Origin: Giardia intestinalis
Taxonomy: Eukaryota
DNA length: 64,000 nucleotides
Reading direction: 5' to 3' (one strand)
Assembly: GCA_000002435.2 (NCBI GenBank)
Contig: CM018793.1
The position numbers and the translations under genes were made by a program. Shown here piece after piece: positions 49,679 through 53,866 of this stretch (position 1 is the stretch's first letter; every line of letters begins with the position of its first letter). The notes under the pieces are model-generated. The model searched no databases. It was not told the DNA's origin and saw only the letters and a list, made by a program, of their open reading frames with translations.

Positions 49679-52600
49679 TCACATCGACGTAAGAAAATCG
49701 ACGAGGTCTTCCGAATCTACCGAACACCTTACCATATTGGCAAAGATACTGTCAGGCTTGTGAAACAGCACGCGCGGAGGACCCTGCTCGACTATTTGAC
49801 CACCGGCCATAACAATAACCCTATCCTGGTTGCAAACAGTGCGGAGTCTATGGGCTATCGTAATAATGATCTTTTGCTCCTTATATGCCCCCAGGGCATC
49901 CTGGATAGCCGTCTCTGCGGCACTATCCACGTGTGCTGTTACCTCGTCCAATAGGATGACTTCTGTGTCTCTGAGCAGCGCGTGGGCTACGCACAGAAGC
50001 TGTCGCTGTCCGAGCGAAAGGTTGCTGCCGTTATCAAAAAGGTGGTAGTCAAGTTGCTTTGACTGAGCTCGAAGTATTCACGCAAGTGCGTCTTCTCCAA
50101 GACACGCCACAGCTCCTCATCTGAGAACCGTCTATCCCCGGAGAGATAGGCTCGCAGTGTCCCGGAGAAAATAAAAGGATCCTGTGGTATCAGCGTCACC
50201 TTAGACCGTGCCTGATGTAAGCCCATCTTCAGCAGGTTCAGGCCATTCAAGAGAATCTCAGACCCGCCTCTGGCTCGACAAGTCTGAGAATCGCATTGAC
50301 AAGGGATGACTTGCCAGACCCTGTCTTTCCTATGATTGCAACGCGCTCTCCCTTGCCGCTGTGAATGAGATCCCATGAAGCACAACTGGCAAATGCTGTT
50401 GATAGCGTAGCGAAAGATCTTGCACAATAAGCCCGAGAGTAGAGTCTGCCGGCAGCTACTTGGGCTATGCGGAGCGCTTGTACTCTCTGGTTCAAGAGTA
50501 GCGTACTCTGCTACCCTTCCACGCTGGCCATAGAAAGATCCATTGCAACAATCCCGAAGCACATATCTATTAACATCATGACAACATCAAAGCCATTCAT
50601 GAGTACGGTACCTGAAAATATCTCTCCGTTAGCAAAAGAAGACGTTATGATAGTGGACACAGTAACTACTGCGGACACACAGATAGATAGAAGGGTAGTT
50701 GTAAAGTGTAGCCATCTGTAGAGGGAAACATCCATCCAAAATGCCGCCTCCATAGCTAGGACGGCTCTGGCGTAGTAGCTTGCCGCCTGGGCTTCATACC
50801 TATACGCTCTAAGAGATGCCAGGTTGTAGTATGTGTCTAGAATAAAGTTACACACATGGCTATTCAAGAGGGAGGTGGTGCGTCGCAAGAGGGGCGACAC
50901 AGCACGAAATCCCATGAACATCCAAAGGAACAGTCCCAGCAAGGGAACTAGCACAAACGTAGATGGCCAGCTCATCAGCAAAGTGGCCAGTAATGAACCC
51001 AGCACAAAGATGGAGTTCTCACATGTCGCTGCTAGGCCATTCTTCACCGTCAAATCACATGTACCTGTGTCTGCTATCAGGCGGTTAAGGATCCGTCCAA
51101 TGGGGTGTGCGTCATAGAACGACATCGATGTATTGATAAGCCCCTCTTCCATGCTGTAGTACAGCTTCTCTGCCGCCTTCCGTGTGAACAGCATATAGAA
51201 GAGCTGCCCAACGAAGAGGATCACCATAAATGCAAAGGAGAACGACAAGAACAGACCTATGCAACCACCTGTGCTCAGCCCTAGCCGCTGTCGGTCCAGA
51301 AGTTGATGAGCAGCGACGCCAGTTGCAACATAAGTATACAGAAGACCCACATGACAACATAAATGACGAATTCCAGGTCCCGCCTGCCTTGAACCATAGC
51401 TTGTAATATTTAGAATTAACAGATCCCAGCTCCGTGCATTCTCCTCCTTAAGCACTGCTGCCATTCGATGCACTTGATAGTCAGAGTCGTGTTTCTCTAC
51501 AGCCTGTATAGAGGTTAGTGAGGGACTTCTGCGACGGGCAGAGGAGAACAGTCTATATCTACGCTCTCTGGTGTCACTTCTTTGATCGTGCCAGCATCTA
51601 TAAATAGCACCTTTAAGCACGAACGAAAGTAATGCATCTGATTGGTCGCCAACACAACGGTCTTCCCCCTTGCAAGTAGATACCCTTTGATGGTCTCGCT
51701 CCATAACGACTTGCAAACATGAGAGTCCAGAGAGGCGAACGGATCATCAAACAAGTAAATATCCGCGTCGGAGTAGATGGCCCTGGCAATTGATAATCGA
51801 GCTTTCTGTCCTCCAGACAGTGTCACACCGCGGCTGCCAACAAGTGTGGCAAGCCCCCCTGGTAGTTCAGAAAGGTCCCCATCCAGACAGGAGAGCCGAG
51901 TTGCAAGCTGCATTTTCTCTTCATCATAGGGTAAGAATAACTGGATATTGAACTGTATGGTCCCTGTAACACGGACGGCACCTGCGAGCAGTATGCAATA
52001 CGGCCCACCGAGTGTATATGAGCGGAATCCGAACTACTTGATGTCGAAAGGGCCACCTCTCCCAGAATAGCCAATAGGAGCTCGACTTCCCGGAGCCAAC
52101 ACAGCCCCCCACCCCAACCAGGCACCCCCTAGGAATACTAAACTGCAAGGATCTAAGAACTGGCACGCACTCTGTCTCTAATTCGCGTACGGAAGACTGA
52201 AGTACGGTAATCTGCCTATGCATGGCTGCTAGCTCAACATAGTACTTCCTTAATCTGTCAGTTTGAGAGGAGCACCTGGAGGCATCAGGCGTTGCCGGCT
52301 GGGGCTTTGGAAGTAGGAGTCCATCGGGGGCATGGGGCTCGTCGCCCCTAGGAGAACCAGCGGCTGCCAGGGACGGCGTCTCGATCGGACCGTCCATTCC
52401 GCACCTACCAGCACATCTTCAGGAGCCTCTTCTCGAGTGCATTGTATGCGCCGAGCAGTTTAGAGCCGCCCTCATGGACAGCAATCTTCTGTTCCTGGCT
52501 TGTAAGATTGCTGTTAGAATTGAAAGAAGAGGGTATGTGTCTGTGGCACTGTCTCCCCCACGAATAACTCGGGTTGCCCACTGTCCATATAACAAACTGA

Positions 52601-53866
52601 GCCGCTGTGGAGTCGTTCTTTTCATGGAGCTTCCCACAATAATCGCCCTCGGGCAGAGTAAGAACCTGCCTCGCTCTGTGGCAGCTGACAATTGCAGAAC
52701 TCAATGAAGAGATCAAGTACGGTAAATCGATAATGACGCGAGCAAATATAGTGAATAGATACGCAGCCGTATAGGCGTGGCCGTGTAAGGTGCCCGCTTA
52801 GCACTGACAAGAAGGCACAGAGAAGCATGGCGGGCCAAGTCATGTAGCCCACCAAGTGGATGCATGATCGCGCAAGGGTCATCCTTCCCACGTATATGAG
52901 CTCTTGACGCCTACGTGGGTGCATTCGACTCCTGCACAGCTCCTGATAATTATAGGCCTTTATCACCCGTAGCCCTGCTATTACTTCGGTGACATGCCGT
53001 GCACGGACATCGCGCGCAGCAGCATATCGTTTTTCCAGAAAGAGATTGTACAGGGTCAGGAGACTAATGAAGGGGAGCGTAACGAGGATGCCCCCAAATC
53101 CAGCAAGAGCACTCCTATCAATTTGAAAAACCAGGAATAAAACAATCATCAACAACTTAAGTGGCACCGCTATCATCCTTGGTATGTTCGACACTAGATT
53201 AGAAATGGAGCGGGCATCACCACTAATGAAAGTAATCACCGCCGGAGATAAAACGTGCGTCGCTGCAACATTGGGAATGCGTATGAGCTTCTTGTACAAT
53301 AGCATCGAGATGGCCTGGGACACACGGATGCTCTGCTCAGCACAGATTGTTGATGCAATGGACTGGAAAAACGCCGTCAAAAGCTGTGCAACAAGGTTAA
53401 TAACTATCCATACCCATGCCTCGCGGAATAAGCCAACAAGCACACTGCTACTAGAGTCGCGGAGGTCAGCTATATGACCAGTATCTAAGACCTTAAGGAG
53501 CTCTGTCATAGTCTTTGGTTGCACAAAAGAAAGAAATACAGCAAGTCCCATTAGTATGGAAGACACAGCAAAGAAGGGCCAGCTCGTCTTCATGACTAGA
53601 GAGCCGATTCGGGCGGGTCTAGCAGTTGCCCGTGCCACCGCCAAAGTGCCTTCCAGCTTAGTCAAGACCTTACCATAATTCATGTTTGTTGGCAGAGAAG
53701 GAATGTCTGATGGTTTTAATACCCTCTGCTTTCTCGCTCTTGCCACGAATGGTGTCATCCATAGAAATGTATAGTAGAGGATGAATGGGCAGCGCTCGCT
53801 CTGCGGCCGTGCACTGGGAAACGCAGTAAACTCGTAGCTCTCATATCGCTCAGCCCTATCTGCCAT
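49679..53866 (-). pseudogene. ABCC/MRP-type full-length ABC transporter (TMD1-NBD1-TMD2-NBD2) split into at least 8 reading-frame segments; either a pseudogene or a locally error-rich assembly
   Basis: Segments in collinear order. MRP-like N-terminus CPFILYYTFLWMTPFVARARKQRVL. NBD1 Walker A LVGVGGCVGSGKSS | SLLLAILGEV... | signature LSGGQKARLSIARAIYSDADIYLFDDP. TMD2. NBD2 Walker A AIIGKTGSGKSSLVNAILRLVEPEAG | SEILLNGLNLLKMGLHQARSKVTLIPQDPFIFSGTLR | signature LSLGQRQLLCVAHALL, Walker B ILLDEVTAHVD, H-loop IAHRL. Each '|' is a frame change. Confidence 0.75.

Follow-up and report, generated by a model that had tools for sequence, protein, structure and literature searches.

A shattered ABCC transporter gene in the Giardia intestinalis reference genome: evidence for a merged-haplotype consensus artefact

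Is the broken ABC transporter gene on chromosome 5 of Giardia intestinalis a feature of the organism or of its reference sequence? WB C6 is a model strain, its chromosome-scale assembly serves as the community reference, and work on drug resistance in Giardia counts ABC transporters among its candidates. We analysed a 64,000-nt stretch (the window) of chromosome 5 as it stands in the WB C6 reference, a PacBio/Quiver assembly (GCA_000002435.2, contig CM018793.1), in which an earlier note, made from the letters of the sequence, had described a transporter gene split into at least eight frames. It offered two explanations, namely a recently decaying pseudogene with a deletion bias, or a low-quality or collapsed-paralogue region with homopolymer under-calling.

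The printed locus and its gene

The locus and its surroundings comprise the following features.

49679–53866, minus strand: predicted ABCC (MRP4-like, no TMD0) transporter gene as printed, most probably a chimeric two-haplotype consensus with 18 dropped bases
52650–53866, minus strand: TMD1-coding part, of which 53866–52811 has 100% identity to short-read contigs
51745–52106, minus strand: NBD1 core, with Walker A GCVGSGKS at 52106–52085, LSGGQ at 51820–51808 and Walker B IYLFDD at 51760–51745
50597–51358, minus strand: TMD2, the best ABC_membrane match (residues 843–1097 of the intact ORF)
49936–50380, minus strand: NBD2, ABC_tran residues 1170–1319, with Walker A GKTGSGKS at 50330–50309 and Walker B VILLDE at 49960–49945
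48718–49545, minus strand: 275-aa ORF with no Pfam match, within the duplicated segment and identical across all short-read contigs
47326–48690, plus strand: VPS4a gene, whose final ~137 codons (48277–48690) lie within the duplicated segment

All four ABCC modules are indeed present and collinear, TMD1-NBD1-TMD2-NBD2 following one another between 53866 and 49679 of the minus strand. An upper limit of about 415 codons had been given for any frame, and the longest open stretches are of 414 and 401–410 codons, with all three frames used; the locus is the sole stretch of more than 1.3 kb in the window in which no ORF reaches 200 aa. The other long genes had been described as intact, which agrees with the finding that, of six long ORFs tested, five are identical to annotated WB proteins, four of these five being also found in independent Logan assemblies. 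None of nine further ORFs (the eight ABCC fragment ORFs and a neighbouring 309-aa ORF) had an exact match among ~15 billion proteins. Unlike the ABCC fragment ORFs, neighbouring genes were recovered in up to 97 contigs, and this distribution speaks against a real pseudogene at this position.

An intact ORF of 1403 aa, found in one short-read contig (L023), contains two ABC_membrane and two ABC_tran stretches (Pfam) arranged as TMD-NBD-TMD-NBD in a single chain, and the fragments in the window keep the same module order. All 60 listed matches among solved structures are ABCC members, the best being ABCC4 (E = 8e-131) and the next ABCC2, MRP1 and YCF1 (E to 1e-117). NBD1 carries the motifs GCVGSGKS, LSGGQ and IYLFDD, and NBD2 the motifs GKTGSGKS, LSLGQ and VILLDE. 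The NBD1 site is degenerate in that Asp replaces the catalytic Glu after Walker B (IYLFDD), and an asymmetry in which NBD1 is the degenerate domain is typical of ABCC. By module order, relatives and motifs, the gene is predicted to encode a full-length ABC transporter of the ABCC/MRP type. Like human ABCC4/MRP4, the 1403-aa Giardia chain runs TMD1-NBD1-TMD2-NBD2 without TMD0, but it differs in having a ~100-residue insert before NBD1 and the signature LSLGQ in NBD2; its identity to ABC transporters outside Giardia is only ~30%.

Single-base gaps and variable sites

The window was compared with 22 Logan short-read contigs aligning to 53986–48277. Against these contigs it shows 18 single-base gaps, every one of which is a base absent from the window, so that all frame shifts go in the same direction. 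No single-base gap of this kind was found in the 22 contigs, where the base is present at every gap position covered, and the flanks of the contigs (53866–52811 and 49580–48277) are identical to the window. The gaps are listed below, with the base pairs given on the minus strand as hapA/hapF, the two haplotypes described in the next section.

52777–52789, minus strand: three gaps, at SNP sites 52788 (C/T), 52785 (G/A) and 52777 (G/A)
52395–52513, minus strand: four gaps, at SNP sites 52512 (A/G), 52498 (A/G), 52424 (C/T) and 52395 (C/T)
51969–52080, minus strand: two gaps, at SNP sites 52079 (T/C) and 51969 (T/C)
51290–51523, minus strand: four gaps, at variable sites 51522 (T/C), 51438 (A/G), 51371 (G/A; the A allele is present in L018, L021 and L001) and 51290 (A/G)
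50069–50518, minus strand: five gaps, at SNP sites 50517 (G/A), 50453 (T/C), 50354 (C/T), 50262 (C/T) and 50069 (C/A)

A 1-nt deletion, always in one direction, had been described at each of five junctions, and the alignment extends this pattern to 18 sites. Three of the five junctions (52079, 50517 and 50262) had been placed exactly; the other two were ~10–25 nt off, lying at 51969 and not within 51945–51960, and at 50069 and not within 50048–50058. The gap at 52079 falls in the Walker A region (GSGKSS F/L LLAILGE). Near 52786 the first alignment gave a 2-nt and a 1-nt gap with two mismatches, which realignment resolved into one single-base gap at each of three SNP sites.

All 18 gaps lie on variable columns, although the contigs differ from one another in just 59 of the 2875 aligned columns (log10 P = -31.6, or -22 with one column of slack allowed on each side). 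Furthermore, a gap is seen only at sites with an allele identical to a neighbouring base (18 of 46 sites of this kind versus 0 of 12 others; Fisher P = 0.006), and it is for this reason that the indels had seemed to lie beside a 2–3-nt run. One could suppose that they represent ordinary PacBio errors in a poorly covered or unpolished patch, such as a PBJelly fill, with homopolymer under-calling unrelated to haplotypes; the authors of the reference assembly report homopolymer frameshifts from PacBio reads and closed gaps with PBJelly, and each gap does adjoin a base identical to one allele. However, random hits would not fall on variable columns 18 times out of 18, the mononucleotide runs at the gaps are merely 1–3 nt long, and there are zero errors at invariant columns over 5.7 kb. 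Nor can such errors yield the alternation between two real haplotypes that is described below. We regard ordinary sequencing error as very improbable, and homopolymer under-calling, as proposed in the earlier note, has to be dropped as the cause.

It could also be that the DNA truly lacks the bases and that the frame is restored by programmed ribosomal frameshifting or by insertional RNA editing. The shared direction of the shifts would fit, and at least one base-carrying contig is RNA-derived: L018 was assembled from RNA-seq data of a WB C6 clone, and several of the Logan run series are probably RNA-seq because their contigs stop near 49652, at the 3′ end of the mRNA. However, in the transcript contigs the extra base is present already and the frame stays open through every site, which makes programmed frameshifting unnecessary; the earlier note had been right to reject it. 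The bases are also genomic, occurring in the WB protein from another chromosome, in a 1018-aa protein of the DH isolate and in two metagenome contigs. In addition, the base that editing would have to insert comes in two alternatives that are phased with the flanking SNPs, which is the behaviour of alleles, and all four nucleotides occur among the missing bases. Of all the explanations considered here, recoding or editing is the least credible.

As to the origin of the contigs, the direct evidence from WB DNA consists of L017 and of the annotated copy on the other chromosome. L017 is common to 12 samples, and its accession series is probably genomic DNA since a neighbouring run in that series yields a 34-kb contig; in the literature identification of SRA runs, the strain was established for SRR17933282 only. 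A metagenome scaffold, L001, is the sole close database match and was tried as a comparator, against which the gaps on the side of the window were visible. It has an oddity of its own, in that the gaps within its 5′ third are all bases missing from L001, including deletions of 15–300 nt, and for that reason the argument rests on the Logan short-read contigs instead.

Two haplotypes and the origin of the gaps

The contigs resolve into two haplotypes differing at ~2% of aligned sites; contigs of this sort are consensus paths, and hapA and hapF as named may be partial mosaics. HapF (L023) has the intact 1403-aa ORF, and hapA is a partly disrupted copy with two small indels and one stop codon, leaving an ORF of 814 aa. 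The last 747 codons of hapA are 100% identical, over 747 aa, to a protein annotated on another WB chromosome, so the same assembly must hold DNA in which the base is present at the 11 downstream gap positions. At the differences between L002 and L023 the window agrees with hapF 25 times and with hapA 22 times, and it is the only assembled locus bearing hapF bases. Across 5.7 kb, no base of the window departs from both haplotypes where these agree. Three further variable positions are real.

52798–52800, minus strand: 2-nt indel, TA in hapF, absent from the window, hapA and AII-like contigs
52465–52467, minus strand: 4-nt indel, CGCT in hapF and AII-like sequences, absent from the window, hapA and L018
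52145, minus strand: variable site, TAG (stop) in hapA, CAG in the window and hapF

The TA at ~52799 keeps TMD1 in frame in hapF, and the TAG at 52145 bounds the 814-aa ORF of hapA, the annotated protein corresponding to the last 747 residues of that ORF. An excess of G>A/C>T differences was also noted in the TMD1 region.

We conclude, with a probability of about 0.93, that the shattered frame is an assembly artefact arising from a long-read consensus of two haplotypes and is not a property of the organism. Directly observed are indels at haplotype-differing sites, their absence from independent short-read and transcript contigs, and a mosaic window with no other errors, in an assembly made without phasing. 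The WB lineage would thus contain two versions, hapA and hapF, of a segment of at least 5.7 kb, and the haploid consensus of chromosome 5 would have been computed from a mixture of long reads of both, stemming either from alleles or from a paralogous copy. At positions where the two differ, the caller would have followed hapA at 22 sites and hapF at 25. At 18 sites where an allele equals a neighbouring base it may have emitted nothing, noisy reads of either allele being then explicable as cheap insertion errors; in a naive error-model calculation, the deletion call is favoured only if insertions of a neighbouring base are cheap. In the Illumina correction, the two alternative inserted bases could each have missed the 50% threshold, and with neither reaching it the gaps would have survived.

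The procedure used for the reference is compatible with such a course. It consisted of HGAP and Quiver, PBJelly, and then Quiver again, giving a haploid consensus with no phasing, and its Illumina correction accepted an indel only at ≥50% support for one alternative; the WB C6 PacBio and Illumina reads and GCA_000002435.2 are the data of Xu et al. 2020. Indels at haplotype-differing nucleotides have been reported in merged-haplotype PacBio assemblies by Korlach et al. 2017 (GigaScience, PMC5632298). The two cases have in common an unphased haploid consensus from long reads, single-base indels exactly at haplotype differences, broken gene models, and short-read and transcript data that are free of the indels. 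They differ in that the Giardia haplotypes may be paralogues on two chromosomes and not diploid alleles, and in that all 18 Giardia errors are deletions that survived a later Illumina correction, plausibly through the 50% rule. The collapse envisaged in the earlier note was therefore essentially right.

The contrary view would be that the chromosome 5 copy is a real and recent pseudogene carrying 18 true deletions, the intact contigs and transcripts being derived from the other copy. A second copy does exist on another chromosome, and hapA shows true disruption (two small indels and the TAG stop). However, mutation gives no reason why 18 of 18 deletions should coincide with haplotype differences (the log10 P of -31.6 given above), and there are zero insertions and no deletion longer than 1 nt. 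Decay should also produce more substitutions than indels, yet there are no private substitutions where the haplotypes agree, and contigs with hapF bases, including that of the WB C6 clone, have the base at every gap position. The pseudogene lesions reproducible in independent sequence are those of hapA only (the missing TA, the missing CGCT and the TAG stop). Over the last 814 codons dN/dS was 0.17–0.52, from small counts (7–26 changes per class), and not near 1 as relaxed constraint would have it. Because of these values and of the intact 1403-aa ORF, we argue that the gene is not decaying and is, or recently was, functional. The printed sequence does resemble a unitary pseudogene, and hapA has two frame-breaking indels and a premature stop; the difference is that the 18 shattering gaps are not in the organism, which has an intact haplotype of 1403 codons under the constraint just given. 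A real pseudogene is as improbable as ordinary sequencing error, and deletion-biased decay does not stand as an explanation, since the gaps are absent from 22 contigs and confined to haplotype-differing sites.

A still less probable variant holds that the 18 deletions are real and arose from error-prone mismatch repair in heteroduplex during gene conversion between diverged copies. If true, it would amount to a previously undescribed route of rapid pseudogenisation in a tetraploid organism with two nuclei.

The second copy and the use of the reference

Giardia is a tetraploid, two-nucleus protist, and mixed reads could have come from alleles or from the duplicate of the segment.

48250–53986, no strand assigned: segment (at least 5.7 kb) found in two copies in genomes of assemblage A

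Sequence at the second locus runs on into a C-terminal fragment of VPS4, a VSP gene and a glutamate-cysteine ligase gene. Twelve Logan contigs end at 48277, and the similarity of L021 to the window ends at 48250. Paralogy between VPS4a and VPS4b was considered as the reason for the ends at 48277 and was rejected, since L021 shows a real second genomic context starting there. The second annotated WB copy is on a 1.49-Mb contig, next to glutamate-cysteine ligase, and is known from its protein: no record was found when its DNA was sought via the annotated 747-aa protein, and a look-up of the glutamate-cysteine ligase returned only Logan contigs, which end in the VSP gene short of the ABC copy.

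This other-chromosome copy was assembled cleanly over the last 747 codons, an outcome not accounted for by a simple, symmetrical cross-mapping of reads between paralogues. A mixture of alleles on chromosome 5 is the better fit, yet the divergence would then be ~200 times the genome-wide heterozygosity of WB (0.0117% in the Be-2/WB comparison paper). That paper was found to make no mention of the ABCC locus, and a literature search for 'Xenobiotic-transporting ATPase' with Giardia found no paper. We consider the chances even that WB C6 itself has an intact 1403-aa MRP4-like gene, missing from the annotation, with haplotypes ~2% apart.

Since the shattered gene is not real in the preferred, consensus-artefact reading, the locus would be uninformative on indel spectra, decay rates and recoding in Giardia, and its value lies in curation of the reference, where a sequence that does not exist is probably printed at a locus with no protein in the collection. 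Read mapping, variant calling and expression counts would be distorted both here and at the paralogue. Runs of single-base gaps in the same direction at sites where copies differ, with error-free sequence between them, could serve as a diagnostic for errors of this type elsewhere in the WB assembly, of which 6.9% is duplicated sequence, and in further long-read assemblies made without phasing. What the short-read data give for this locus is a transcribed MRP4-like ABCC gene with as many as 1403 codons.

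The ABCC gene and its relatives

On the minus strand of the window (53866-49679), an ABC-transporter coding sequence is split among three frames, with longest open stretches of 414 codons (TMD1) and 401-410 codons (TMD2). Both membrane domains, as well as the Walker A, signature and Walker B motifs of two NBDs, are present in canonical order, so that frames, motif order and longest stretches all agree with the shattered yet collinear ABCC gene described in the earlier note. By exact look-up, neither the eight ABCC fragment ORFs nor the neighbouring 309-aa ORF matched any entry in the protein collection. 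Five of the six long ORFs tested, including an ATRX-like helicase, GL50803_114497 and VPS4a, are exact matches to WB clone C6 proteins on chromosome 5 (4,018,654-bp contig), and four of these five WB proteins are also found in independent Logan assemblies (up to 97 contigs). The sixth, an 871-aa ankyrin-type ORF (27675-30290), is the only one whose exact sequence is missing from the collection, likely owing to a different annotated start codon.

A search with the hand-joined C-terminal half of the ABCC gene gave one close cluster at 98% identity, everything else being at 42% or less.

Members listed for the close cluster
747-aa WB protein, "Xenobiotic-transporting ATPase"; on a different WB contig (1,485,438 bp)
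1018-aa protein of assemblage AII isolate DH; gene adjoins VPS4a
Metagenome ORFs; 937 aa
Many Logan ORFs; 814 and 915 aa

Using the cluster ORFs and the neighbouring 275-aa gene, we retrieved 22 short-read contigs (L002-L020 and L022-L024) spanning window positions 53986-48277. A single unbroken ORF of 1403 codons is found in L022 and L023, and L024 stays open through at least 1327 codons before the contig stops. The 1403-aa product contains two ABC_membrane and two ABC_tran stretches according to Pfam, and its best matches among solved structures are ABCC4/MRP4, ABCC2, MRP1 and YCF1. The Walker B motif of NBD1 reads IYLFDD, with the Asp-for-Glu replacement typical of ABCC proteins.

Single-base gaps and two haplotypes

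The window flanks (53866-52811 and 49580-48277) match all 22 contigs at 100%. Within the ABCC gene, exactly one base is missing from the window at each of 18 positions, and none of these gaps is present in any of the 22 contigs. The contigs sort into two haplotypes. In the partly disrupted hapA (e.g. L002), TA is missing at ~52799 and CGCT at ~52466, position 52145 is part of a TAG stop, and the sequence is divided into ORFs of at least 452-459, 90 and 814 aa. The protein annotated at the second locus, on the other WB contig, shows 100% identity to the last 747 residues of hapA. The intact 1403-aa version, hapF, is best represented by L023. Several contigs have mixed hapA/hapF states, including L018, assembled from RNA-seq (rRNA-depleted) of a clonal WB C6 line. 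To judge from contig ends at 49652, near the stop codon, several Logan series probably represent RNA-seq. For genomic short-read support in a WB-type strain, L017 is the best candidate: it is common to 12 samples, and a neighbouring run of the same accession series gives a 34-kb contig.

Among the 2875 aligned columns, 59 vary between contigs, and 16 of the 18 gaps coincide with these columns. The remaining two, which initially aligned as a 2-nt gap with mismatches at 52786, resolve on realignment into single gaps at SNPs 52788 (C/T) and 52785 (G/A). The probability of all 18 falling on variable columns by chance is ~10^-31.6, or 10^-22 with a tolerance of one column to either side. Elsewhere among the sites that distinguish the haplotypes, the window follows hapF at 25 and hapA at 22, the choice alternating along the gene; at columns where hapA and hapF agree, it differs from them nowhere. 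Of the 46 sites at which one allele or both match an adjacent base, 18 have gaps, as against none of the 12 sites with no such match (Fisher P = 0.006).

This coincidence with variable sites, together with the lack of any other error, contradicts a true pseudogene carrying 18 real deletions, and with it the decaying pseudogene offered as one option in the earlier note. More generally, a natural deletion process is disfavored because the gaps are confined to haplotype-distinguishing nucleotides, are all of 1 nt, and are accompanied by no private substitutions. Random homopolymer error is contradicted as well, since the gaps fall on variable sites and no error is seen elsewhere; of the earlier suggestion of a low-quality or collapsed-paralogue region, what holds is a mixture of two sequences behind the gaps, but not homopolymer under-calling. 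RNA editing, by which the additional bases would arise in transcripts, is contradicted by their presence in genomic copies and by the occurrence of two alternative bases per site, phased with flanking SNPs. Programmed frameshifting, already rejected in the earlier note, is unnecessary because the transcripts are in frame as they stand.

Judging from these sequence comparisons, the frameshifts are an assembly artefact of an already known kind, as a passage of Korlach et al. 2017 (PMC5632298) describes indels in merged-haplotype PacBio assemblies at nucleotides differing between haplotypes. A haploid consensus built from mixed noisy long reads of two haplotypes would give the observed gap pattern: at a mixed site the consensus would take the base of either allele, and where either allele can pass as a low-cost insertion next to the same base, the column would be omitted. 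According to the assembly steps stated in Xu et al. 2020 (PMC7000408), the PacBio-based, chromosome-scale WB reference was produced by HGAP and Quiver, with PBJelly gap closing and a second Quiver polish. Its Illumina correction accepted an indel only if one alternative had at least 50% support. We infer that, where a SNP column had been omitted, Illumina reads would disagree on which base to insert, each of the two possibly staying below 50%, which would let the gaps survive. The artefact is of little biological interest, and is useful to curators and users of the Giardia reference.

State of the gene

Even with all 18 gaps filled, the window contains two ORFs (at least 372 and 949 aa), since at both real indels its chimeric consensus has the hapA state. 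Of these, the lack of TA at ~52799 is shared by hapA and the AII-like sequences, TA being found only in hapF, while CGCT at ~52466 is present in AII-like sequences and absent from AI sequences except hapF. The hapA stop at 52145 is a CAG>TAG change. It follows from the hapA lesions that the 747-aa "Xenobiotic-transporting ATPase" of WB is the C-terminal part of a disrupted copy. WB C6 may itself carry the intact 1403-codon allele; its contig L018 reads as two ORFs, of 489 and 915 aa. When hapA, hapF and two AII-like sequences are compared with one another over the last 814 codons, dN/dS is always within 0.17-0.52, albeit with small counts, which indicates constraint rather than neutral decay.

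In the TMD1-coding part (53850-52900), AI sequences (the window and all Logan contigs) diverge by 13.7% from the AII-like metagenome contigs L001 and L021, compared with 1.7% over the remainder of the gene. When the 112 changes in this part are read in the direction of AI, 87 are G>A or C>T; GC content is 48.5% in AI versus 58.8% in the AII-like contigs. The biased tract is ~300 nt longer in hapF than in hapA (17 of 22 changes; window 52810-52500). It resembles the outcome of deamination-type hypermutation, or of biased gene conversion with differing tract ends.

Duplicated segment and its surroundings

In metagenome contig L021 the ABC gene is followed by the 275-aa gene, then by a 114-aa VPS4 C-terminal fragment, a VSP gene, glutamate-cysteine ligase and others. 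The contig stops resembling the window at 48250, and 12 Logan contigs end at 48277. The 1.49-Mb contig of WB includes glutamate-cysteine ligase (KAE8301237), whose accession is four numbers away from that of the ABC protein (KAE8301233). Taken together, these observations imply that chromosome 5 and the 1.49-Mb contig each have a copy of the same segment, at least 5.7 kb long. The reads mixed at chromosome 5 may represent alleles or mis-recruited paralogous reads. The clean hapA sequence of the second copy, known from its protein, and the predominance of hapA in the short-read contigs fit alleles; such an allelic mixture would, however, be ~200 times the genome-wide heterozygosity of WB, a value of 0.0117% being quoted in the Be-2/WB comparison paper.

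A sharp GC step at 54000-58000 (64-68% across GL50803_114497, versus 44-55% in most of the window) begins exactly at the upstream edge of the duplicated segment. GL50803_114497 is intact in the window (1062 aa) and broken in L001. Compared with window 56936-53067, L001 (positions 1-2912) shows 32 gaps affecting the homologue of this gene and the ABCC 5' end, every one a base loss in L001 (17 of 1 nt and 15 deletions of 2-300 nt). Several deletions are flanked by ~8-nt direct repeats, e.g. CCCCTGGC or GAGGAACG. The losses could be real microhomology-mediated decay in the isolate or an artefact of scaffold assembly.

VPS4a (47326-48690, 454 aa) forms one 90%-identity cluster with VPS4b (483 aa), which lies at another position on this chromosome, and the third VPS4, at the second ABC locus, is a truncated C-terminal fragment (114 aa in L021). 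In the 2007 RefSeq set, the phosphatase and VPS4a are XP_001705074 and XP_001705076, but GL50803_114497, glutamate-cysteine ligase and the ABC protein are XP_001706023, XP_001706039 and XP_001706041. This split in the numbering, observed for window 47326-57224, suggests a break of the old Sanger assembly in this region, which would have linked chromosome 5 and second-locus contexts via one collapsed copy of the duplicate.
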